Source of the DNA: Escherichia phage vB_EcoM_PTE-Eco09
Direction: 5' to 3' (one strand)
Length of the DNA: 64,000 nucleotides
Sequence record: PQ306574.1
In this document: piece by piece, positions 2,289 through 49,260 of the stretch
How the letters are laid out: each line of letters begins with the position of its first letter
Position numbering within the stretch: the first letter of the stretch is position 1
Notes under the pieces: model-generated
The model's database searches: none
What the model was told of the DNA's origin: nothing
What the model saw: the letters and a program-made list of their open reading frames with translations, nothing else
Program-made: the position numbers and the translations under genes

Positions 2289-3263
2289 ATGCTGAGTGTT
2301 AATGAAAATGAGTTTCAGTGGGAACAGAAATACCGTCCGAAATCAATTTCTGAATGTATTCTGCCGGAAGCAGATAAAAAGATCTTCGCGCAGATTGTTA
2401 AGCAAGGCCGAATCCCTTCAATGATTCTGCATAGCCCATCGCCGGGTACTGGTAAAACAACCGTTGCTAAGGCGCTTTGCGAAGATGTGGGTGTTGATTA
2501 TCTGTTTGTTAACGGCGCAGATTGTAAGATTGATTTTATCCGCGATGAGATTACACGCTTTGCGCAGAGTGTATCACTCGATGAAGAAAAAAGAGAAAAA
2601 GGCAAAGTTGTTATTATCGATGAGTATGACCGAGCGGGGTTGGCTGACGCTCAAAGACACTTGCGTAGTTTCTCTGAGGCATACTCAAACAATGTGACAT
2701 TCATTATCACAGCAAACGATCTAGAAGGTATTATCCCAGCGTTACGATCTCGATTTGACCCCATAACGTTTGGATCTCCGACTAAAGATGATCAGCTTCG
2801 CATGATGAAAGAAATGATCGTCCGGTGTAAAGCAATTCTTGATAAAGAAGGTGTGCCAGTAGAAGAAATGCGCGTATTAGCGGAACTGGTTAAACAGAAC
2901 TTCCCAGACTTCCGACGCGTAATGAAACTTTTGGACCGCTACGCTAAACATGGTAAAATTGATGCTGGCGTATTGAGCATGGTTATCGAAAGTAGCAATA
3001 CCGAAGTAACCGATGTGGTGGAAGCACTTAAAACTAAACAGTTTGCTAATGTGCGTAAACTTGCGCCGCGATATACCAATACATACGCTCAATTTGTCAA
3101 GAAACTTTATAATGAGTTGTATACTCAAGTTAAGCCAGCGTCTATTATTCGTCTGACCGAGATTATTGGTGAAAATAATCAGATGTTTGCACACGCGGCT
3201 GATAAAGAGATTCACATTGTCTTTTTGTTAATGCAATTAATGGTTGAATTGGAGTTCGTATAA
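2289..3263 (+). CDS. 44: clamp loader large subunit gp44 (AAA+)
   Basis: Walker A SPSPGTGKTT, DEYDR box, SRF motif; ATG at 2289 with RBS. The track ORF starts at an upstream GTG. Confidence 0.9.
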   Translation: MLSVNENEFQWEQKYRPKSISECILPEADKKIFAQIVKQGRIPSMILHSPSPGTGKTTVAKALCEDVGVDYLFVNGADCKIDFIRDEITRFAQSVSLDEEKREKGKVVIIDEYDRAGLADAQRHLRSFSEAYSNNVTFIITANDLEGIIPALRSRFDPITFGSPTKDDQLRMMKEMIVRCKAILDKEGVPVEEMRVLAELVKQNFPDFRRVMKLLDRYAKHGKIDAGVLSMVIESSNTEVTDVVEALKTKQFANVRKLAPRYTNTYAQFVKKLYNELYTQVKPASIIRLTEIIGENNQMFAHAADKEIHIVFLLMQLMVELEFV

Positions 3264-3841
3264 TGTTAGGTCAATTTTTCGGTGAAGATGATACACAATT
3301 AAACGAGCATGAAATTGCATGGCGCTCTCGTGATTGGGAAAAGGTGTCTGAATTAGCGGATACATTCACCGAGAAAACCGACAATGCATTATTTGCTCTG
3401 ATGGATCATATCACCTTAGATAAACAGCGCGTTAATGTGGGAAACAATTCTGCATATAACCAGAGATGGATTAACACCGCTCTTTCCCAGCACGCAGATT
3501 GCCTATATAGCGCGTATGTGATGAATTTAATCGGTCATGGCCTCCCAGATCAAATGCATTTTGATTATCTCTTACAGAGTATTTCTAAGGGGAAACGATA
3601 CGGTAAATGGGCTAAACTAACAGAAGAATTGGACCAAAAATTGGTTTTAATGGCAGTGGCGAAAGCATATTGTGTAAATATGGATGACGCCCGGTTTTAT
3701 CTCGATTTGGCTAATGAAAAGGGATATATGGACAAGTTATTGAAGCACATTAAACCGTATGCGACCGATGAACTTTTGGCGGGTGTTACTAAGAATCAGA
3801 CAGAAAGGAAACGACTTAAAAAGATTATAGAAAGGTGGTAA
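3263..3841 (+). CDS. 62: clamp loader small subunit gp62
   Basis: 192 aa; TAATG overlap with gene 44; QLNEHEIAW and GKRYGKWAKL match remembered T4 gp62. Confidence 0.85.
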   Translation: MLGQFFGEDDTQLNEHEIAWRSRDWEKVSELADTFTEKTDNALFALMDHITLDKQRVNVGNNSAYNQRWINTALSQHADCLYSAYVMNLIGHGLPDQMHFDYLLQSISKGKRYGKWAKLTEELDQKLVLMAVAKAYCVNMDDARFYLDLANEKGYMDKLLKHIKPYATDELLAGVTKNQTERKRLKKIIERW

Positions 3842-3842
3842 A

Positions 3843-4205
3843 ATGATTGAAATTAATTTGATTAGTCCTGAAAACTTCCTTAAAATTAAGGAAACTTTAA
3901 CCCGCTGCGGCATTGCCAACAATCGAGACAAGACGCTGTATCAGTCTTGTCATATTCTCCAGAAGAAAGGGCGCTATTACATCGTTCATTTCAAGGAGTT
4001 GTTGAAATTAGATGGTCGTAGTGTTAAAATGACGTGGGAAGATGAATTACGCCGTAATAACATTGCAAAACTTCTTGCGCAGTGGAATCTGTGTACCCTG
4101 ATTGATAGTGATTTTGAAACTACCGAAGTTAATAATTTCCGTGTACTGTCTTTCAAACAGAAAGAAGAGTGGACGCTGATCGAGAAATATCAGATCGGGC
4201 GATAA
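3843..4205 (+). CDS. regA: translational repressor RegA
   Basis: 120 aa; MIEINL...KETLTRCGIANNRDKTLYQSCHILQKKG closely matches T4 RegA. Confidence 0.9.
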   Translation: MIEINLISPENFLKIKETLTRCGIANNRDKTLYQSCHILQKKGRYYIVHFKELLKLDGRSVKMTWEDELRRNNIAKLLAQWNLCTLIDSDFETTEVNNFRVLSFKQKEEWTLIEKYQIGR

Positions 4206-14451: not shown

Positions 14452-14955
14452 ATGCAATTTACACCAGAAGAACTTAACATCATTGATGAAGTGATGAACT
14501 CTAAAGAAAATATCGATATGTCGATCCTTAATGGATTGATTGAAAAGACTGAGCGGTTAGTGCATCATGAAGCCTTGTATCGCGGTGTGAGCAAAAGAGA
14601 AGGCCGTAAGCTGGATACCTTAATTGTGGGTGATTCTTTCGTTGTAGAGCGTCCTATGAGCTTTACGCCACTACAATCAACAGCAGAGGACTTTGCAACC
14701 GATGTTTATGCAACAGGAAAGATTATTGCAATAAAACCTACCAAGCCTTGCATGAATTATTACGAACATGCTATTGACCGAGTGGTGTCTAAAGAGTATG
14801 ACAATCCGACTACTCGACTGTCTTTGTATGCTATGTTGGCAGATGAGCGCGAGTGCATATACAAGACAGGGACGACCATGATCCTTGATGAGATCGAGGA
14901 AGTTTACGCGTGTAACGGCGATCTGATAGAGATTTACAAATTTTCTTTAATTTAA
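14452..14955 (+). CDS. putative ADP-ribosyltransferase (Mod/Alt-like, R-S-ExE type)
   Basis: Ordered motifs LYRG (Arg), SFT (STS-like) and ERE (ExE); located near dda where T4 has modA/modB. Confidence 0.5.
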   Translation: MQFTPEELNIIDEVMNSKENIDMSILNGLIEKTERLVHHEALYRGVSKREGRKLDTLIVGDSFVVERPMSFTPLQSTAEDFATDVYATGKIIAIKPTKPCMNYYEHAIDRVVSKEYDNPTTRLSLYAMLADERECIYKTGTTMILDEIEEVYACNGDLIEIYKFSLI

Positions 14956-14958
14956 GTG

Positions 14959-14987
14959 TTGACAGCACAAACCAGATAGACAATAAT
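14959..14987 (+). promoter_or_regulatory. sigma70-like early promoter
   Basis: TTGACA with an A/T-rich -10 17 nt downstream. Confidence 0.45.
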
Positions 14988-15016
14988 ACACACATACCAA
15001 CTAAGGAGAATCAATT

Positions 15017-15772
15017 ATGAAACTGTTTGCTTTTAAATCTAACGAAGAATTGGCGCTGGTTGTTTTCCGGCTGAACTCTATCATGGCTGGTGCTTCACGT
15101 CGCAACAAAGACTTCTCTATGAGCTTAGTCACTGTTCGTAACATTTACCGTCAGACTCATTGTGCCTATTCAGGTGAGGCTTTCGGTGAAGGTGATGACG
15201 GACTCTCCTTAGAGCGCATTGATTGCAATCTGGGATATGTTGATGGCAATGTAATTCCGGTTAAACTGAAATACAATTCTTTCCGTGGAAATCACACTAT
15301 CGAATCTCTTAAAGAGATCCAGGAACTGGGAACTAACGGTAAACTTTCTGATGATGAAATTGCCCTACGTGCGAAGTACATCGAGTGGATCGAACTTAAC
15401 GAGAATCGCATCAAAAATCAGGAAATGGCAATCGAAGAAAAGAAATTAGCAATCGAGCGCCACAAAAAGCACAACGAACCGGAGAAAGCAGAGGCAGCCG
15501 AGCGAGCGATTAAAAATACTCTCTTCCGTATGGAAGAACGTTATCAGAAAATTGCAGATCTCAAGCAAGCACTTAGCGAAATCAACAAGAAAGAAGAAAA
15601 ACTTAAGGCTATTGCAAACAATACCGAAATCGTGCTAAAATATACCAGCGTTTTGATTGAATCTCTTTCTAAGTATGAGAACTTAACGCCAGCACAAAAA
15701 GAACGCGTGAAATACGGGCTTCCGATTGATGCGTCGTGGATTGAATTGATGAAAGCGAAGGTAGGTTTATAA
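15017..15772 (+). CDS. hypothetical protein with degenerate HNH-like motif and long coiled-coil C-terminus
   Basis: HCAYSGEAF...LERIDCNLGYVDGNVIPV...NSFRGN resembles an HNH core with the catalytic His replaced; remainder charged and helical. Confidence 0.45.
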   Translation: MKLFAFKSNEELALVVFRLNSIMAGASRRNKDFSMSLVTVRNIYRQTHCAYSGEAFGEGDDGLSLERIDCNLGYVDGNVIPVKLKYNSFRGNHTIESLKEIQELGTNGKLSDDEIALRAKYIEWIELNENRIKNQEMAIEEKKLAIERHKKHNEPEKAEAAERAIKNTLFRMEERYQKIADLKQALSEINKKEEKLKAIANNTEIVLKYTSVLIESLSKYENLTPAQKERVKYGLPIDASWIELMKAKVGL

Positions 15773-16086
15773 TGCATGTATTTGCTGTATGTTATCGTGA
15801 TAAAGACGGATTCTTTCAATACTCAGTGGACGCGAAAGGTCGCGTCCTAACTTGCGAAACACATGATGCTGCGTTAGCGTCAATGTGTGATCAGATAGAT
15901 TATTGTGAGAGTCTATTGGCTGGTGAACCGAAATACAAGGTTGTACCTAAACGAAAATTTGGCATAATCCGGTCTTCTGAAATTGTTCGGGATGGTATCG
16001 AATATAAAATTCCTGAATATGAAAAAGAACGGGTACGGCGAGAACTCAATACTATCTGTGTTCGCAAGGTGAGGATTTTAGGATAA
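15772..16086 (+). CDS. hypothetical protein
   Basis: 104-aa ORF, ATGA overlap with neighbours. Confidence 0.45.
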   Translation: MHVFAVCYRDKDGFFQYSVDAKGRVLTCETHDAALASMCDQIDYCESLLAGEPKYKVVPKRKFGIIRSSEIVRDGIEYKIPEYEKERVRRELNTICVRKVRILG

Positions 16087-17477
16087 TGAGCAGAGTATTA
16101 ACTTTCGATATGTTAACAGACGGGCAAAAACATGCTTTTGATGTTCTAATGAAACGTATTGAACAAAAGAAGCATACAACTGTCCGTGGTGCGGCGGGTA
16201 CTGGTAAAACCGCAATGATGAAATTCATTGTTCAGGAAATGGTCCGCCGTGGTGTAACTGGTGTGGTTTTGGCAACGCCTACCCACCAGGCTAAAAAAGT
16301 TTTGAGTAAAGCGGTAGGTCGTCAAGCATTTACTTTACATGCACTACTGCGACTAAACCCGACCAACTATGAAGATACTCAAGTATTTGAGCAAAAAGAT
16401 ACTCCTAAGCTAGATGATGTTCAGATCATCATTGTTGATGAAGCGAGTATGGTCGATAAGAAACTATTTGATATTCTCATGAAGAGTATCAACGGTCGAA
16501 TTGTTATTATTGCCGTGGGTGATCTGTACCAGTTACGACCAGTTGATCCGAGCGGTGCAACGTCGATCTCTCCTTTCTTCACCGATGAAAGGTTTCAGAA
16601 TGTAGAACTTACAGAGATTAAACGATCTAATGCGCCAATAATTGATGTGGCGACCGCTGTCCGTAATGGTAAATGGGTATTCGAAAAGCAGTGCGGCAAC
16701 GAGGGTGTATTCCATAGCTCAACTCTGCCGGAGTTTATGAAGCATTATTTCGAAACCGTTAAAACGCCGGAAGACCTTCTAGAAAACCGTATTCTGGCCT
16801 ACACTAACAAGAGCGTCGAAAAACTCAATGAAATTGTGCGTAAGCGCGTTTATAACACCGATGAACCAGTGATTGTAGATGAAATTCTGGTTACTCAGGA
16901 ACCATTGATCGAATATCTGCGAGATGAACGCGGGAAGAAGATCCCCAATGTTATTTTTAACAATGGTGAGATGATCCGAGTTAAAGAGGTTATACCGCGC
17001 GAATTTACATTACGTTGCACGGGGGTAGATCCGCAACCAGTTTTAGGCTATACTCTGAAAGTGGAAAGCGTCGATGATGACGAAGACAAAGAAATCCTAA
17101 ATCAGAAAGTCGGTTTAGATACAGTCGGAATCACTACAGATAAACCGGATTTGGTAGAAATCAACATTCTGACAGAACAACGTCAGAAGAACATTTTCTC
17201 TATCTATCTGAATACGGTTGCCGGACAATATCGCGAAATGAAGAAAGAGAATCCAAAATTTAAACCAGATTGGGATTCATTCTGGACGATGAAGCGTATG
17301 TTCTTGAATGTAAAAGCATTACCAGCTTGCACCATTCATAAGTCACAAGGGATCAGCGTAGACCGCGTGTTCCTGTATACTCCTTGCATGTGTACAGACA
17401 ATGTTGACTTTGAATTGGCAATGCAGTTATTATATGTTGGTGTTACCCGTGCGAGGTATCGAGTAGACTATATTTGA
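16086..17477 (+). CDS. dda: DNA helicase Dda (SF1)
   Basis: 463 aa; Walker A GAAGTGKT, DEASM, QGISVDRVFLY; long match to remembered T4 Dda. Confidence 0.95.
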   Translation: MSRVLTFDMLTDGQKHAFDVLMKRIEQKKHTTVRGAAGTGKTAMMKFIVQEMVRRGVTGVVLATPTHQAKKVLSKAVGRQAFTLHALLRLNPTNYEDTQVFEQKDTPKLDDVQIIIVDEASMVDKKLFDILMKSINGRIVIIAVGDLYQLRPVDPSGATSISPFFTDERFQNVELTEIKRSNAPIIDVATAVRNGKWVFEKQCGNEGVFHSSTLPEFMKHYFETVKTPEDLLENRILAYTNKSVEKLNEIVRKRVYNTDEPVIVDEILVTQEPLIEYLRDERGKKIPNVIFNNGEMIRVKEVIPREFTLRCTGVDPQPVLGYTLKVESVDDDEDKEILNQKVGLDTVGITTDKPDLVEINILTEQRQKNIFSIYLNTVAGQYREMKKENPKFKPDWDSFWTMKRMFLNVKALPACTIHKSQGISVDRVFLYTPCMCTDNVDFELAMQLLYVGVTRARYRVDYI

Positions 17478-17487
17478 GGAAATTATT

Positions 17488-17655
17488 ATGATTATGCGAA
17501 GTATCCCCGAATTTGACGAAGTGACGGTACGCCGTCACAATGGAACTGTTACCATGTGTTTTAGTTGGGGTCATTATGGATGGAACGTATCCGGCGACAG
17601 TGAAGCTGAATGTATCAATAAAATGATCGAATATTTCACTAAGCGAGGGTTTTGA
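17488..17655 (+). CDS. hypothetical small protein
   Basis: 55 aa; C-terminus encoded by the repeat at 17611-17660. Confidence 0.35.
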   Translation: MIMRSIPEFDEVTVRRHNGTVTMCFSWGHYGWNVSGDSEAECINKMIEYFTKRGF

Positions 17656-17838
17656 TATGGCTAATGAAGCTAGAAGAAAGAAGAGTTTAGATACGCGGTG
17701 TAAGCCAACAATGACAAACGAACAGTTACAGGATTTTTTGGCCGTAGCTCTTAATTCGTCAAAAAAATCTCGTGACTACCAAGCTGTATGTATCAATAAA
17801 ATGTCAGAACATTCCACTAAGCGAGGGTTTTGATATGG
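17611..17838 (+). repeat. two copies of an approx. 50-bp direct repeat (17611-17660 and 17789-17838)
   Basis: TGTATCAATAAAATG...CACTAAGCGAGGGTTTTGATATGG repeated with about 5 mismatches. Confidence 0.7.
17657..17833 (+). CDS. hypothetical small protein
   Basis: 58 aa; C-terminus ...CINKMSEHSTKRGF parallels the preceding ORF. Confidence 0.35.
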   Translation: MANEARRKKSLDTRCKPTMTNEQLQDFLAVALNSSKKSRDYQAVCINKMSEHSTKRGF

Positions 17839-18077
17839 TTGTTATTAATAATGTGGCTAATGTAATACATCTACAATCAATTGTCGCGTGGAACCGTCAA
17901 AAGATTCATTGTGACTATGCACAACATGTAATGAATTTTAACAACAAAGTACGCGCATACATGGCAACGGAACGACTGTTAACCGATAATTACGGTAACG
18001 GGATTATTGATTGTAGCGGTTTCATTCTGGATAAAAACGATCTGGAGTTGTTCCGGCATATCGCGGAGGATATTTAA
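17835..18077 (+). CDS. hypothetical protein
   Basis: 80-aa ORF from the ATG at 17835. Confidence 0.4.
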   Translation: MVVINNVANVIHLQSIVAWNRQKIHCDYAQHVMNFNNKVRAYMATERLLTDNYGNGIIDCSGFILDKNDLELFRHIAEDI

Positions 18078-18078
18078 A

Positions 18079-18747
18079 ATGCTTCCAGTGGATTTAATGA
18101 TTGACTTTGAAAGTTTAGGTTATCCGCCTGATGGGGCGGTTATCAATATGGCGGCAATCGGATTTAAAGAAGATCCGCACAACCCACCTACATTTAAAGA
18201 ACTGGTTGACAATTCCTTTCTGGTAAAATTTGATATTCCTTCCCAGAAAGGTGTAAGGGTGTTTGATCATGGTGTGGTTGAATGGTGGAAGAGTACCGCC
18301 TCAGAAGGCATGAGAAAGCAATTAATCACAAATGGTACGGAAGTATCAACTAAAGAAGGTTTAGCGCGTTTTAACGCATTCTGTGAAGCCGTAGGGGTAG
18401 ATCCGGTTAAATCCGTATTGTGGTCACGCGGTAATGCGTTTGATATTCCGTTACTAGTTGATATGATCCGCCGTGCACACAATACACGAGAGACGTTCAA
18501 TCTTGAACCTGTGCGATTCTGGAATATCCGAGATGTTCGCACCGCCATTGAGCGTACATTGATGCATCGCGGGATGTGTGAGTGTCCGTTACCAATGGGT
18601 ACGCTAGATGGTTTTATCGCACATGATGCAATTCATGATTGCGCTCGCGATATTCTTATGCTAATCTATGCACAACGTTATGCTATGGGTCTGGAAGACC
18701 TACCAGAAAATCCAGATCCAAATTCAGTTAAGAAACAAAGGGGATAA
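18079..18747 (+). CDS. dexA: exonuclease A (DexA, DEDD-type 3'-5' exonuclease)
   Basis: 222 aa; IDFES, GTLDGFIAHDAIHDCARDILM, YAMGLED closely match remembered T4 DexA; adjacent to dda. Confidence 0.85.
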   Translation: MLPVDLMIDFESLGYPPDGAVINMAAIGFKEDPHNPPTFKELVDNSFLVKFDIPSQKGVRVFDHGVVEWWKSTASEGMRKQLITNGTEVSTKEGLARFNAFCEAVGVDPVKSVLWSRGNAFDIPLLVDMIRRAHNTRETFNLEPVRFWNIRDVRTAIERTLMHRGMCECPLPMGTLDGFIAHDAIHDCARDILMLIYAQRYAMGLEDLPENPDPNSVKKQRG

Positions 18748-18748
18748 T

Positions 18749-18922
18749 ATGCCATTATACGATTATTCTTGTGAAGAACACGGTCAATTTCAGAAAATCC
18801 GCAAAATTTTCGAGCGTGAAAAGGCAGAATGCCCTGAATGTGGGAAAGAATGTAAACAGGGATTAACTGCCCCGCGCGGGATTAATGGCGGGTATTACGA
18901 TAAAAATGTGCGCGTGTCATGA
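18749..18922 (+). CDS. small zinc-ribbon protein (FmdB-like CxxC...CxxC)
   Basis: MPLYDYSCEEHG...CPECGKEC. Confidence 0.5.
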   Translation: MPLYDYSCEEHGQFQKIRKIFEREKAECPECGKECKQGLTAPRGINGGYYDKNVRVS

Positions 18923-18954
18923 GTCATATACTTGACAATCACTCAATTTTTAAT

Positions 18955-19029
18955 ATGATTGTTGCAGCCGTCTTTGTGGCGGTTGCAGTAAGTTATGGTT
19001 ATGTTATGAAGAGGTTTAATAATGAGTGA
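18955..19029 (+). CDS. tiny hydrophobic leader ORF overlapping the gene 39 start
   Basis: 24 codons (MIVAAVFVAVAVSYGYVMKRFNNE); its stop overlaps ATG 19022. Confidence 0.25.
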   Translation: MIVAAVFVAVAVSYGYVMKRFNNE

Positions 19030-20845
19030 GTTTCGCATTTTATCTGATCGTGAACATGTCCTTAAGCGTGCAGGAATGTATATAGGATCAACAACTTACG
19101 AAGAACACCAACGTTTCCTGTTCGGTAAATGGACAAAAATTTCATATGTTCCAGGACTGGTTAAAATCATTGATGAGATCATCGACAACTCTGTAGACGA
19201 GGCGATTCGCACTAATTTTGAATTTGCCAATGTGATTAGCGTCGATATCCAAAACAATATTGTTACGGTAACAGACAACGGTCGCGGTATTCCTCAACAT
19301 ATGGTTACTACCCCAGAGGGCACGCAGATTCCGCAACCTGTAGCCGCATGGACACGAACAAAAGCAGGGTCTAACTTTGATGATACCAATCGATTAACGC
19401 AAGGGATGAACGGTGTGGGGTCGTCGTTGTCAAATTTCTTTAGCGATTGGTTTACTGGTGTGACCTGTGACGGAGAAACAGAAATGACCGTTCAATGTAC
19501 AAACGGTGCTGAAAATATCACATGGTCATCGAAACCATCAAAATTGAAGGGAACAAAGGTTACATTTTGTCCAGACTTCGACCACTTCGAAGGTTATATG
19601 ATGGACAACTCTGTTTTAGATATTGTTCATGATCGTCTGCAATCATTGAGCGTAATCTTTCCTAAGATCACGTTTAAGTTTAATGGTAAACGTATTGTTA
19701 GTAAGTTCAAGGATTATGCTAAACTATACAATGATGATCCGTTTGTCATTGAAGATAAAAACTTTTCACTTGCCCTAGTTCCTGCGGTCGAGGGAGAAGG
19801 TTTTAAATCAGTATCCTTTGCTAATGGTCTGTTTACCAAAAACGGGGGAACACACGTAGACTACGTGACAGATGATCTTTGTGAAGAGATTGTAAAACGA
19901 ATCAAGAAAGAACATAAGGTTGATGTTACTAAAGCTGCGGTTAAGTCTGGATTGACCTGTATTCTTATTGTTCGTGAATTGCCTAACCTTCGTTTTGATT
20001 CACAGACAAAAGAACGATTGACTAATCCAACTGGTGATATCAAGCGTCATATTGATCTTGATTTTAAAAAGCTGGCTAAAGTCATTGCGAAGAAAGAAAA
20101 CATTATCATGCCTATTATTGCTGTAGTCCTGGCACGCAAAGAGGCAGCAGATAAAGCGGCAGCGACTAAGGCAGCCAAAGCAGCGAAACGGGCTAAGGTA
20201 GCAAAACACGTTAAAGCTAACCTTATTGGAACTGACGCAGAAACTACCCTGTTTTTGACGGAAGGTGATTCCGCGATCAACTATCTGGTCTCTGTACGTG
20301 ATCCAGATTTACATGGAGGTTTCCCGTTGCGAGGCAAAACTCTTACAACGTGGGAACAACCGGAGGCAAAGATCGTTAAGAACGCCGAAATTTTTAACAT
20401 CATGGCGATCACTGGTTTGCAATTTGGTGTTGATGCATTGGAAGTTATGCAATACAAAAATATTGCGATTATGACAGACGCTGATACTGACGGGATCGGG
20501 TCTATTAAACCTAGTCTGATCTCTTTCTTTGCACGTTGGCCTGAATTGTTCGAAGATGGACGAATCCGGTTTATCAAAACACCTATTATCATTGCGGAAC
20601 CAAAGAAAGGTGATGATGTTCGATGGTATTATGACCTAGAAGATTTCGAGAACGACCGAGATAATATCAAAGGTTATAGCATTCGATATATCAAAGGGTT
20701 AGCATCTCTTACAGAATCAGATTATCATCGCGTGATCAACGATCCTGTAATGGAAATCATCACGTTACCGGAAAACTATAAAGAGCTATTCGATTTGCTC
20801 TATAGCGAAGATTCAGACCGCCGCAAAATTTGGATGCAATCATAA
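19022..20845 (+). CDS. 39: topoisomerase II large subunit (GyrB-like), fused gp39/gp60-type
   Basis: 607 aa; GHKL ATPase motifs (IDNSVDE, DNGRGIP); Toprim region continuous with no gap. Confidence 0.85.
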   Translation: MSEFRILSDREHVLKRAGMYIGSTTYEEHQRFLFGKWTKISYVPGLVKIIDEIIDNSVDEAIRTNFEFANVISVDIQNNIVTVTDNGRGIPQHMVTTPEGTQIPQPVAAWTRTKAGSNFDDTNRLTQGMNGVGSSLSNFFSDWFTGVTCDGETEMTVQCTNGAENITWSSKPSKLKGTKVTFCPDFDHFEGYMMDNSVLDIVHDRLQSLSVIFPKITFKFNGKRIVSKFKDYAKLYNDDPFVIEDKNFSLALVPAVEGEGFKSVSFANGLFTKNGGTHVDYVTDDLCEEIVKRIKKEHKVDVTKAAVKSGLTCILIVRELPNLRFDSQTKERLTNPTGDIKRHIDLDFKKLAKVIAKKENIIMPIIAVVLARKEAADKAAATKAAKAAKRAKVAKHVKANLIGTDAETTLFLTEGDSAINYLVSVRDPDLHGGFPLRGKTLTTWEQPEAKIVKNAEIFNIMAITGLQFGVDALEVMQYKNIAIMTDADTDGIGSIKPSLISFFARWPELFEDGRIRFIKTPIIIAEPKKGDDVRWYYDLEDFENDRDNIKGYSIRYIKGLASLTESDYHRVINDPVMEIITLPENYKELFDLLYSEDSDRRKIWMQS

Positions 20846-20848
20846 CAC

Positions 20849-20891
20849 TTGACATACAAGGGAGATTCTCTATAATGGGAGTCTCCCTTTT
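20849..20891 (+). promoter_or_regulatory. sigma70-like promoter with the -10 element inside a GC-rich inverted repeat
   Basis: TTGACA-16 nt-TATAAT; GGGAGA...TCTCCC flank the -10, followed by TTTT. Confidence 0.5.
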
Positions 20892-20910
20892 CGTTTATGA
20901 GGATTTAATA

Positions 20911-21210
20911 ATGAGCAAAAAGAATAACATGATGATGAGTATGACAAAGTTCATGGAAGTAGACCTGATCAAAAATACAGTACAACATGAACGCCAGCGA
21001 GAAGCCGCAGTGATTGCAGAACAAGGTTTTCAGGTTATCCACAATCCACCTAAAGACACGGTTAAATCGAAATACAGAGACGATCTGAAAGACCATGAAG
21101 TACGGGAACTGGTTAATGATCTGCGTGACATTGCCATCAAATATCATGGTTATCAGTGCTTACGAGAACTGATCGCAGAGCGAGTAATGGATGCATTGAA
21201 AAAAGATTAA
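20911..21210 (+). CDS. hypothetical protein
   Basis: 99-aa ORF with RBS GAGGA. Confidence 0.45.
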   Translation: MSKKNNMMMSMTKFMEVDLIKNTVQHERQREAAVIAEQGFQVIHNPPKDTVKSKYRDDLKDHEVRELVNDLRDIAIKYHGYQCLRELIAERVMDALKKD

Positions 21211-21217
21211 AAATCTG

Positions 21218-21246
21218 TTGACACTGGATCGGGGATATATCATAAT
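21218..21246 (+). promoter_or_regulatory. sigma70-like early promoter
   Basis: TTGACA-17 nt-CATAAT; GGGGA...TCCCC flank the -10; CATCGAAAAC leader. Confidence 0.5.
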
Positions 21247-21267
21247 GTCCCCATCGAAAACAAAAGG

Positions 21268-21471
21268 TTGACTTATATGAAACCGTTTAAGAATGAAGAA
21301 ACTCAAAAATTTTGTGAAAAAATTGCAGAAATCTACTTGACAGGGGAGAAGGAAAAAGCTAATATTATGTTCAAAGAGTCAGTTTCCATGATGAAAGTAG
21401 CACGCTGGGAACTGATCGCAATGCAAGACCAAATTCGTTATCTAGTAACAAAGGAGAATCAAAATGCGTAA
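21268..21471 (+). CDS. hypothetical small protein
   Basis: 67-aa ORF. Confidence 0.4.
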   Translation: MTYMKPFKNEETQKFCEKIAEIYLTGEKEKANIMFKESVSMMKVARWELIAMQDQIRYLVTKENQNA

Positions 21472-21658
21472 CCATTACATCGAATTGGCAAGCCGTAAAG
21501 TTTCAGACCTGAAAGGCGTAATTGCTTACTATGAAGAAGTCCTGAAAAACGAAATTGCCGAGTGGGAACGTAAAGAATACAGCAAGTGCTTAGAGAAAAG
21601 CCGCGCTGAACTGGTTGACGCAGAAGCCCATCTGCAATGGGTAATTGAAAATGTATAA
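21464..21658 (+). CDS. hypothetical small protein
   Basis: 64-aa ORF. Confidence 0.4.
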   Translation: MRNHYIELASRKVSDLKGVIAYYEEVLKNEIAEWERKEYSKCLEKSRAELVDAEAHLQWVIENV

Positions 21659-48045: not shown

Positions 48046-49260
48046 ATGTTAGTACGTCAAGCGCATGAAATTGAATGGACTAAGGAGAAACATAATTGTA
48101 GAGCGAAAAGCCCAACAGATTTTTATGGTAAAATTTTAGAAATATGTAAAACAGAAAATTTAGTTTTTGTCGGCTTTGTTGGGGAATGGGAAGGAAACAA
48201 AACAAAAATAAAACTTATCTGCGAACATGGTCATGAATGGATATGTTCGATAGATAAATTTGTAAGTAAAGGAACAAGATGTTCTCATAAACAATGTAAA
48301 GGTAAACGAATATCTAAAAAATTGTCTATATCCGAAACGGAATACAAAACGAGAATTTTAGAAATATGTGAAACTGAAAATCTAATTTTCTTAGGTTTTG
48401 TTGGTGAATGGAAAGGGTGTGATACTAAAATTCGCATAAAATGCAAATACGGTCATGAATGGGATGTATCTATATATAGCTTCACAAAAATGAATACCAG
48501 ATGCCCTACATGCGCAGGACAGAACAGGACAAAAGACGAATACAAAACGAGAATTTTAGAAATATGTGAAACTGAAAATATAATTTTCTTAGGTTTTGTT
48601 GGTGAATGGAAAGGATGCCGCACAAAAATAAAACTTAGCTGCAAACACGGTCATGAATGGATATCTTCCATATTATGTTTTGTGTATCAAAATACTCGCT
48701 GTCCTGTATGTGTTGGTAGATTGTCTATCGACGATAGAATGATACAGATTAATCAAGTTTGCAATTCTTTAGGTTATGTAATAATTAAGATCCACGAAGA
48801 ATGGAAAAACACAGAAACTAAAATTGATGTTAAATGTTTATGTGATTATATATGGACAACAACAATACATAGAGTCATACATGGGACTACAGGTTGCAGA
48901 AAGTGTGCTACACATGGATACAATACAAAAAAATCGGGGACTCTTTATATACAGAAATTAACCAACGATGATTCCTTTGTTGGTGTGAAATTTGGAATAA
49001 CAAACAGAGACACGAATGAACGAATGAAAAACCAATCATCAAAGTCTAAATTCGACCATGAGATCTTTTATGAATTGACTTTACAAGACGGTCAAAAGAT
49101 CTTAGAATTAGAGAACAAGATCAAGAAAGCGATGAAAGGTAAAACTTCCTATATCTCAAAAGAAGATATGCCGGATGGCTGGACCGAAACAGTAGCGCCG
49201 TCTGAATTGAGCACTATCATGTATATCGTAAAAACTTTTGAAAAAGAGTTGACAGCGTAA
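48046..49260 (+). CDS. protein with three tandem zinc-ribbon repeats and a C-terminal T5orf172/GIY-YIG-like domain
   Basis: Repeats FxGFVGEW.G..TKI...C..GHEW......F......RCP.C; C-terminal GTLYIQKLTNDDSFVGVKFGITNRDTNERM. Confidence 0.55.
   Translation: MLVRQAHEIEWTKEKHNCRAKSPTDFYGKILEICKTENLVFVGFVGEWEGNKTKIKLICEHGHEWICSIDKFVSKGTRCSHKQCKGKRISKKLSISETEYKTRILEICETENLIFLGFVGEWKGCDTKIRIKCKYGHEWDVSIYSFTKMNTRCPTCAGQNRTKDEYKTRILEICETENIIFLGFVGEWKGCRTKIKLSCKHGHEWISSILCFVYQNTRCPVCVGRLSIDDRMIQINQVCNSLGYVIIKIHEEWKNTETKIDVKCLCDYIWTTTIHRVIHGTTGCRKCATHGYNTKKSGTLYIQKLTNDDSFVGVKFGITNRDTNERMKNQSSKSKFDHEIFYELTLQDGQKILELENKIKKAMKGKTSYISKEDMPDGWTETVAPSELSTIMYIVKTFEKELTA
48340..48735 (+). repeat. 198-bp tandem duplication inside the 48046-49260 CDS
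   Basis: About 78 bp from 48340 and from 48538 are identical apart from one mismatch; a more diverged third unit lies upstream near 48121. Confidence 0.75.

Follow-up and report, generated by a model that had tools for sequence, protein, structure and literature searches.

A 58-bp direct repeat in an RB49-like coliphage: the probable duplication of a gene junction upon capture of a small coding module

Introduction

In the coliphages RB49 and phi1 the shuffling of PeSL (promoter-early stem-loop) elements has been described as a means by which single small ORFans, flanked by recombinable direct repeats, come to be present in one phage and absent from another (PMC2839356; Comeau et al., 2014, PMC4122927). 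We analyze here a locus from the same group of phages, contained in a window—that is, the whole stretch of DNA under study—of 64,000 nucleotides from Escherichia phage vB_EcoM_PTE-Eco09 (sequence record PQ306574.1), where a direct repeat of 58 nt flanks the small open reading frame (ORF) ORF009.1, situated between ORF010 and ORF009. The likeness to PeSL shuffling lies in the phages themselves, in the single small ORFan that is either present or absent, and in the recombinable direct repeats at its sides; but the PeSL repeats are intergenic promoter-plus-terminator cassettes of ~100 bp, dispersed in hyperplastic regions, whereas the repeat considered here consists of coding sequence and a ribosome-binding site, occurs in two copies within a conserved block of replication genes, and encloses a gene whose product appears to be a protein chimera. 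Arbiol et al. (2010; PMC2839356) counted ORFan009.1 among seven phi1 genes missing from RB49, and placed it outside the hyperplastic regions; no flanking repeat is mentioned in that paper, the terms "direct repeat" and "duplication" being absent from its text.

Other described systems share particular traits with this locus. In the modules of Botstein and Campbell with their conserved "linker" (discussed in PMC2839356), short conserved ends place and express an exchangeable module, a scheme into which a divergent cassette lying between homogenized repeats in a metagenomic contig (L046, see below) would fit; the linker here, however, is a duplicated resident junction inside reading frames, whose exchange also sets the C-terminus of a protein. 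The accretion of morons and ORFans by illegitimate recombination (Hendrix et al., 2000, cited in PMC2839356) likewise adds a small foreign gene between residents without a dedicated recombinase, but morons as a rule carry a promoter and a terminator of their own, and no scar can be recognized after them, whereas the present cassette uses a resident initiation region and leaves a 58-bp duplication. The junctions of imported DNA in the relatives of T4 are, according to a review of that family, typically without signatures (PMC2993671). The deletion and conversion between short direct repeats known from T4-type phages (Singer et al., 1982) have their counterparts here in one-copy alleles that have lost exactly one period and in the second repeat copy of the Makalu phages and of L046, which has the look of a conversion patch, although the blocks of perfect homology at this locus measure just 16 and 24 nt. 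In transposon insertion, finally, the target sequence is directly duplicated on both sides of the insert, as it is here. Transposon target-site duplications usually comprise 2–15 bp, however, against the 58 bp of this locus, whose insert is an in-frame coding module with neither terminal inverted repeats nor a transposase.

A keyword search of the literature for precedents returned nothing specific; the indel has already been published as a phi1-specific ORFan, whereas, as far as the searched literature shows, the duplicated junction at its sides, the chimerism of the gene, its conversion, and its decay are undescribed. The locus as such belongs to the familiar class of phage mosaicism, and illustrates clearly, though in no unusual way, the gain, exchange, and loss of very small genes in T4-type phages.

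Results

The repeat and the genes that it joins

The window derives from a Krischvirus, an RB49-like "pseudo-T-even" coliphage, the stretch 17300–18200 being 99.6% identical to phage kvi and 95–98% identical to ECD7, GEC-3S, Phi1, RB49, and JSE. The two copies of the repeat, which in our view are probably a gene junction that was duplicated as a Krischvirus ancestor took up a small foreign coding module between ORF010 and ORF009, and which would now serve as homology for exchange, conversion, and precise loss, lie at 17603–17660 (R1) and 17781–17838 (R2) on the + strand, as do the genes of the window from dda to gp39 that are named below. They are identical at 52 of their 58 positions (90%), with a start-to-start spacing of 178 nt and perfect-identity blocks of 24 and 16 nt; within the 50-bp core that an earlier note on this DNA had recognized (17611–17660 and 17789–17838, with about five mismatches) we counted exactly five. 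A degenerate pattern of that core hit two sites only in the 64-kb window—with none expected from 100 shuffles—and still two when up to three mismatches were allowed; this repeat (family D5) is the closest-spaced, high-identity non-PeSL repeat of the entire window.

R1 comprises codons 39–55 of the predicted ORF010 (17488–17655, 55 aa; RB49ORF010c or phi1p010; phrog_16162) with its TGA stop (17653–17655), the Shine–Dalgarno sequence GAGGG (17645–17649), one spacer base, and the ATG plus the following G (17657–17660) of the predicted ORF009.1 (17657–17833, 58 aa; the phi1 ORFan009.1; phrog_37371). R2 repeats that arrangement one gene further on, with codons 42–58 of ORF009.1, TGA at 17831–17833, GAGGG at 17823–17827, one spacer base, and the ATG plus G (17835–17838) of the predicted ORF009 (17835–18077, 80 aa; phrog_15021), whose initiation region the repeat thus carries. 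Within each copy GAGGG stands 7 nt upstream of the ATG, and both junctions read TGA-t-ATG, a spacing of one nucleotide that refutes the overlap of each stop with the next start asserted in the earlier note; the CINKM.E..TKRGF endings that it had reported for both ORFs are indeed there, ORF010 terminating in ...ECINKMIEYFTKRGF (CINKMIEYFTKRGF) and ORF009.1 in ...VCINKMSEHSTKRGF (CINKMSEHSTKRGF). The unique 120 nt between the copies (17661–17780) constitute the cassette body of ORF009.1, codons 1–41 of which we call its body, and together with R2 they make up a 178-bp unit (17661–17838, equivalently 17603–17780) that is missing as a block in the one-copy Krischvirus genomes. Whereas each of the two small proteins matched its own PHROG profile along its full length—ORF009.1 that of phrog_37371 (positions 1–58, E = 5.8e-42) and ORF010 that of phrog_16162 (positions 1–55, E = 9.6e-44)—the cross-matches of the two proteins to each other's profile were confined to the last 21 positions. 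Pfam contained no family for ORF010, ORF009.1, or ORF009.

The tail native to ORF010

The repeated tail is native to ORF010, because its homologues in Kagunavirus carry that tail: certain small proteins of these siphophages can be aligned with ORF010 over its full length, ...SKADCINQLLQW... and the A(E/D)CIN helix included. The ORF010 alleles of phages KFS-EC and AV108, which are ~70% identical, end in CIN.MI.HFTKRG. In an AlphaFold2 model made without an alignment, ORF010 is confidently predicted to adopt a beta-beta-beta-alpha arrangement (predicted local distance difference test score, pLDDT, 79.9) with a C-terminal helix at residues 39–52, the predicted helix and the repeat beginning at the same codon, 39; a fold search of that model against the PDB gave nothing significant (best E 0.09), the resemblances to a double-stranded-RNA-binding domain and to Sac7d being only partial. 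The ratio of nonsynonymous to synonymous polymorphism (pN/pS) was 0.20 in the ORF010 body and 0.23 in its tail, indicating purifying selection, and 1.06 for the same tail codons within ORF009.1; ORF009 is also under purifying selection (0.20).

The Kagunavirus homologues (L033, 607–756; L032, ~595–741), with ~34% identity and the same length, are located at the end of a nin-like early region, beside NinH and an antiterminator gene and just before the terminase, so that ORF010 falls within a small-protein family common to enterobacterial sipho- and myoviruses.

The body shared with unrelated phages

When ORF009.1 was used as a tblastn query, weak and recurrent matches of its residues 6–43 were obtained to ~350-kb Asteriusvirus and ~72-kb Gamaleyavirus (N4-like) phages, the matched ORFs reading MKRKQNLSKKLQPTMTKEQLSTFINAALDKSKSKNESK in the former and ...RRAKQGITTRLIPVMTNEQLQEFIDTGLKQSKARIVTFNHPCIK in the latter, neither of them with the CINKM tail. 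Residues ~5–39 of ORF009.1 constitute a module, R/K-rich...P.MTNEQLQ.F....L..SK, that is also present in the Gamaleyavirus members of phrog_7648 and in a 38-aa Asteriusvirus ORF. The profile of phrog_37371 was accordingly covered in two separate parts: the Gamaleyavirus protein of phrog_7648 (E = 6.8e-6) and the Asteriusvirus ORF (E = 3.6e-4) aligned at positions 6–37 only, and ORF010 at positions 38–58 only (E = 1e-5). In the reciprocal direction, a hidden Markov model (HMM) built from five Gamaleyavirus and Asteriusvirus sequences found ORF009.1, with 39.8 bits (E = 3.7e-11), as its sole match when all 1,758 ORFs in the six frames of the window were scanned, the next best having E = 2.6; the match to ORF009.1 ended at about residue 39. 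The codon-position identities between the body and these homologues, with third positions the least conserved, indicate a relationship that is old and at the protein level. To judge from these sequence comparisons, ORF009.1 is a chimera in which a body of a foreign family (codons 1–41) has been fused in frame to a copy of the ORF010 helix (codons 42–58).

As a single sequence searched against 1.84 billion representatives, ORF009.1 did not reach the Gamaleyavirus and Asteriusvirus families, such large-database searches having recovered only Krischvirus alleles and one spurious repetitive protein, P0010; the cross-family support therefore comes from the smaller search spaces of the PHROG profiles and the purpose-built HMM. 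The AlphaFold2 model of ORF009.1 was helical and of low confidence (pLDDT 63.5), and only secondary structure was read from it.

In the N4-like phages the module belongs to a small early gene of Gamaleyavirus (L009, 1153–1332; L034–L045, from 401) whose 5' end, MRKSLIMGTKEDV, is near-invariant, with ~97% column conservation versus ~65% in the flanks, and whose 3' end, IVTFNHPCIK, is similarly near-invariant, the hypervariable middles of 15–40 residues being wholly unrelated to one another. Of the 13 members of this gene, three bear the MTNEQLQEFID.GLKQSK module in common with ORF009.1, and the whole looks like an in-frame exchange of cassettes between conserved gene ends. In the Asteriusvirus phages G17 and TH47 (L008 and L007, 1198–1314) the 38-aa ORF lies immediately upstream of a tRNA-Thr gene; the annotation of G17 omits this ORF, which overlaps with a 37-aa coding sequence that is annotated.

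One-copy and two-copy states among relatives

We queried the public phage genomes with a 901-nt stretch of the window and classified the matches by collinearity. Seventeen records (14 without RefSeq duplicates) were collinear throughout, among them kvi, ECD7, G37-3, Delraymugoa, FL38, Skers, GEC-3S, pEJ01, Phi1, 011D4, and three Makalu phages; 34 records, such as RB49, JSE, and Sf20, matched in two pieces spanning ~723 nt (901 minus 178); and seven, from the KFS-EC clade and AV108, contained divergent one-copy alleles. The related genomes therefore hold both of the states, one-copy and two-copy, that the earlier note had proposed to compare, and the two-copy structure, being found in 17 independently deposited phage records and in one metagenomic contig, is authentic and not a sequencing artifact. 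Upon alignment with the window, RB49 and JSE lack one whole 178-bp period and keep a single clean junction; from the ATG of ORF010 to dexA the distance was 592–594 nt in the two-copy and 412–418 nt in the one-copy genomes, with no other lengths. These natural alleles, of 593 and 415 nt, hence differ by exactly one period, with one intact repeat retained. Pattern scans of IMG/VR and of metagenomes added few loci.

In clusterings of either flank the two states are interspersed, the most divergent genomes—the outgroup—being one-copy, and neighbors of mixed state are found repeatedly: kvi and the window with RB49 and Sf20, Phi1 and GEC-3S with JSE, Makalu with SSG23, and G37-3 with TB34. All the 11 one-copy junctions that were sampled, along with 33 of 33 one-copy tblastn records, had a pure copy-1 (ORF010-type) tail. 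Frequent deletion with crossovers anywhere in the repeat would be expected to yield hybrids with copy-2 codons; the absence of such hybrids favors one of two explanations: the indel has spread through ordinary recombination within the flanks, which are ~95% identical, or there is selection for the native helix of ORF010.

Within the KFS-EC/AV108 clade, of six to seven phages, ORF010 and ORF009 are both replaced by ~70%-identical alleles, with identity returning to ~100% over the initial ~55 nt of ORF010 and the final ~60 nt of ORF009; compared with the window (17488–18077), the stretch concerned (L003 and L004, ~1690–2100) shows alleles exchanged in situ, with sharp edges. In PHB13 (L028, 1689–1844) the annotated ORF010 has only 51 aa and the locus exceeds that of the other one-copy phages by 1 nt, which difference, in a record labeled as a partial genome, suggests a frameshift in the ORF010 tail or a sequencing error.

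Conversion, decay, and allele exchange since the insertion

The reading frame of ORF009.1 has been altered at homopolymers by at least five independent frameshifts. A T6 run (17734–17739) is T5 in pEJ01, leaving a product of 29 aa, and an A7 run (17761–17767) is A8 in ECD7 (39 aa) and, independently, A6 in the Makalu phages (48 aa), a form present on 10 contigs; in copy 2 of the repeat, A4 has become A5 in 011D4 (54 aa) and A3 in the metagenomic contig L046 (50 aa). ORF009.1, the body of which has a pN/pS of about 0.4–0.5, is weakly constrained and often broken, and its borrowed tail evolves without protein constraint. Among the Logan assemblies, P0005 encodes an ORF009.1 with two compensating frameshifts that bring the tail back into frame (…SSKNLVTTKLNVSIKMPEHSTKRGF), and P0003 a 63-aa stop-loss variant (…TKRGFCYGCY) that would run into the start of ORF009.

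Exchange between the copies has left its own marks. Copy 2 of the Makalu phages, in which the copy-1 diagnostic codons ATC GAA TAT TTC occur and 57 of 58 positions are identical to copy 1, is a gene-conversion tract. In L046 (ENA ERZ28636463 scaffold_43, a 169.6-kb Krischvirus contig) a divergent ORF009.1 allele, at 1332–1926, is set between ordinary flanks—the ORF010 body is 98.3% identical to that of Phi1/JSE, and ORF009 plus dexA 93% identical to the window—and its cassette body shares only ~78% identity with each of the other alleles, indels of +9 and −3 nt being in frame; its copy 2 coincides with its own copy 1 at 56 of 58 positions, a deletion of 1 nt ending the ORF at ...ACINK. That divergent allele implies that the cassette is old, the body having diverged as coding sequence, and either the repeats have been homogenized within genomes or they have acted as crossover points for swapping cassette alleles. 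Across all the genomes the two copies share polymorphisms at positions 6, 29, and 46 and exhibit zero fixed differences.

Surrounding features

Upstream of ORF010 lies the dda helicase gene (16086–17477), and downstream of ORF009 the dexA exonuclease gene (18080–18747), followed by gp39.2, ORF006.1, and the topoisomerase gene gp39. Near position 19022 of the window, at which the topoisomerase gene gp39 begins in the window as in RB49 and Phi1, the phages Skers, PHB13, and G5211 contain a putative endonuclease gene (L018, L028, and L031, ~3050–3900); this gene, at ~1.2 kb from the cassette, may represent the insertion of a homing endonuclease, and could drive the co-conversion of nearby markers.

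Two near-consensus sigma-70 promoters that overlap stem-loops of 13–14 bp are located at 18932–18991 (TTGACA-16-TATGAT) and 20849–20889 (TTGACA-16-TATAAT), these PeSL-like elements being 1.1 and 3 kb downstream of the cassette and the first of them inside a small ORF (18919–19029). The true PeSL-like families of the window, D2 and D4, contain TTGACA...TA(A/T)(G/A)AT. At the repeat itself (17603–17660 and 17781–17838), a consensus scan of 14500–21500 detected no promoter-like or terminator-like site; nor did a search for RNA structure in the repeat, such as a coupling hairpin, give minimum free energies distinct from those of dinucleotide shuffles (z = +0.11, −0.56, +0.22, and −1.26). In another part of the window, 48118–48660, three repeats of 123 nt, 70–87% identical and spaced at 222 and 198 nt in one reading frame, encode ...RILEICETENLIFLGFVGEWKG...K..HGHEW... 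modules, an intragenic domain triplication.

Discussion

The earlier note had read the repeat as the footprint of a recent duplication or of repeat-mediated recombination. A gene junction does seem to have been duplicated, but the event was not simple, in that the duplication covers no more than 58 of the 178 bp, the remaining 120 bp being a module with homologues in N4-like and jumbo coliphages; and it was not recent, in that the two-copy state spans several Krischvirus species and the body of one allele is only 78% identical to the others. Instead of two ORFs with C-termini that are nearly identical, one should rather speak of the native ORF010 together with a chimeric gene that has a borrowed C-terminal helix and the translation-initiation region of the next gene.

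With respect to mechanism, a single illegitimate recombination or a double template switch—from phage to donor, and back to phage at a point 58 nt upstream—could have generated the arrangement: the foreign module would have been copied after ...GATATGG, and the phage template rejoined 58 nt upstream at ...AAGCTG...; in a variant of this scheme, an insertion would have been followed by a conversion patch from R1. As it stands, the inserted body runs in frame from the copy of the ORF009 start site into the copy of the ORF010 tail, with a stop 1 nt before the ORF009 start. Since the 58-bp duplication includes tail, stop, Shine–Dalgarno sequence, and ATG, the two downstream genes are left with the same initiation region, and the close TGA-t-ATG spacing of the operon is maintained. 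What is retained of copy 2 is mainly its 3' 24 nt, which serve ORF009. Thereafter the repeats may have functioned as short "linkers" of homology, copy 1 occasionally overwriting copy 2—as the conversion tract of the Makalu phages partly shows—and recombination between or around the repeats may have restored a clean one-copy state. On the basis of established T4 biology, the phage's own recombination machinery would then have drawn on the 58 bp of homology to convert the repeats, to exchange cassettes, and to excise them precisely.

Several observations weigh against this capture of a module with duplication of the junction. We found no donor with a high nucleotide identity to the body, for which reason the junction microhomologies and the one-step mechanism are what we infer. 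The DNA of the ORF010 body (17488–17602) and that of the ORF009.1 body (17657–17780) are 50% identical, a value within the top ~0.5–1% of gene 5' ends; this similarity could reflect chance, a longer duplication now decayed, or homeology that guided the insertion. Certain of the ORF009.1 frameshifts are in homopolymers, where a sequencing error is possible, although the Makalu type is on 10 contigs. Nor is there genome-wide concerted evolution, the copies differing within genomes as much as between them (permutation P = 0.68), which lack of global homogenization would make the exchange episodic and not continuous. The interspersion of the two states within crown Krischvirus, furthermore, fits either recombinational spread or recurrent deletion; the origin by junction duplication at capture is better supported than is the history of the crown group.

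That history is where the most credible of the alternatives applies. If the two-copy state were ancestral for the RB49/Phi1/JSE group, the one-copy genomes would represent repeated, independent deletions by homologous recombination or slippage between the repeats, a possibility that we consider real though on balance doubtful. The precise loss of one period, the interspersion of both states among close relatives, and the age of the cassette suggested by the L046 allele would all agree with such a history, as would the junction of TB34, whose JSE-type left part and GGG variant are the crossover product to be expected from a G37-3-type parent. Against these points stand the one-copy outgroups and the lack, in all the one-copy junctions inspected, of copy-2 codons, which a crossover within the left 23 nt should leave behind—hybrids, though, that selection on the ORF010 helix could have hidden—while ordinary recombination during co-infection, in flanks that are 95% identical, explains the interspersion without recurrent deletion. 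The perfect-identity blocks of just 24 and 16 nt are, moreover, reportedly short for efficient T4-type homologous recombination (Singer et al., 1982). We regard as improbable a tandem duplication of the whole of ORF010, with ORF009.1 as a paralogue whose N-terminal body had diverged past recognition and whose C-terminus had remained alike. The lengths are certainly close (an ORF010 unit of 169 nt, a repeat period of 178 nt), and a gapped global alignment of the two bodies at the DNA level, with 63 identities in 125 positions, surpasses 210 of 211 other gene 5' ends of the window; but a similarity of 50% is at saturation, the alignment requires five gaps that change the frame, and in its best block the two sequences are paired in different reading frames, whereas at the protein level the ORF009.1 body matches the module of unrelated phages far more strongly (E = 3.7e-11). 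The profile match between ORF010 and ORF009.1 stops at the last 21 residues, the predicted folds differ—a beta-sheet body in ORF010 and helices in the low-confidence model of ORF009.1—and the contrast between 90% identity in the tail and 50% in the body cannot be put down to selection acting on the former, whose pN/pS in ORF009.1 is ~1.

This last value also bears on the idea that the tails are a functional C-terminal motif kept alike by selection, through convergence or domain sharing, the DNA repeat being a by-product. Both tails are predicted to be helical, and in P0005 the tail frame has been restored by two compensating frameshifts; the identity is nevertheless one of DNA, continuing past the tail codons into the stop, the spacer base, and the start that follows, the tail of ORF009.1 evolves at a pN/pS of 1.06, and in pEJ01, ECD7, Makalu, 011D4, and L046 the tail is lost or out of frame, all of which renders that explanation very unlikely. 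We give hardly any credence to the remaining alternative: that the repeat is a known regulatory or mobile cassette, whether a PeSL, a transposon or homing-endonuclease target duplication, or a site for site-specific recombination. PeSL-flanked cassettes are the described route of ORFan gain and loss in these very phages (PMC2839356), and PeSL-like sites with promoter and stem-loop are only 1–3 kb away, at the positions given above. Neither copy, however, has a sigma-70-like promoter or a terminator, the RNA folds no better than shuffled sequence, and the repeat is inside coding sequence rather than intergenic, occurs twice in the window, and is unrelated to families D2 and D4. With no promoter, no stem-loop terminator, a coding content, and two copies only, identity with a PeSL was rejected; a transposon scar was likewise discarded, in that no inverted repeat bounds the 120-nt insert, only the 41-codon body is encoded there—with no recombinase or endonuclease gene in the cassette—and the 58-bp duplication far exceeds those of transposons.

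Returning to the capture of a foreign module, we advance only tentatively, as an unlikely extension, the notion that the ~32-residue "R/K-rich...P.MTNEQLQ.F....L..SK" peptide might be a mobile in-frame module that travels among the small early genes of unrelated coliphages. If that were so, each module would borrow the start and stop signals of the resident gene, and conserved gene ends or duplicated junctions would act as general "linkers" for an exchange of micro-domains, similar to exon shuffling, in the early regions of phages, with the arms race against host defenses as a possible driver.

The locus carries, in addition, a warning for annotation: proteins of the ORF009.1 type are chimeric, and their C-terminal likeness to ORF010 is uninformative with respect to function. 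The coexistence of one-copy, two-copy, converted, and frameshifted alleles furnishes a natural system for the study of short-homology recombination and translational coupling, and the arrangement offers a concrete, testable alternative to PeSL shuffling for those ORFans of the RB49 group that lie outside the hyperplastic regions. The genomes of T4-type phages are rich in tiny genes annotated without a function, whose junctions of entry are usually traceless; here the trace is intact, and it suggests that an operon with tight coupling may receive a foreign module through the duplication of 58 bp of the resident junction, which duplication would supply a ribosome-binding site, a start codon, and a C-terminus already provided with a stop, and afterward a handle for exchange, conversion, and clean removal.

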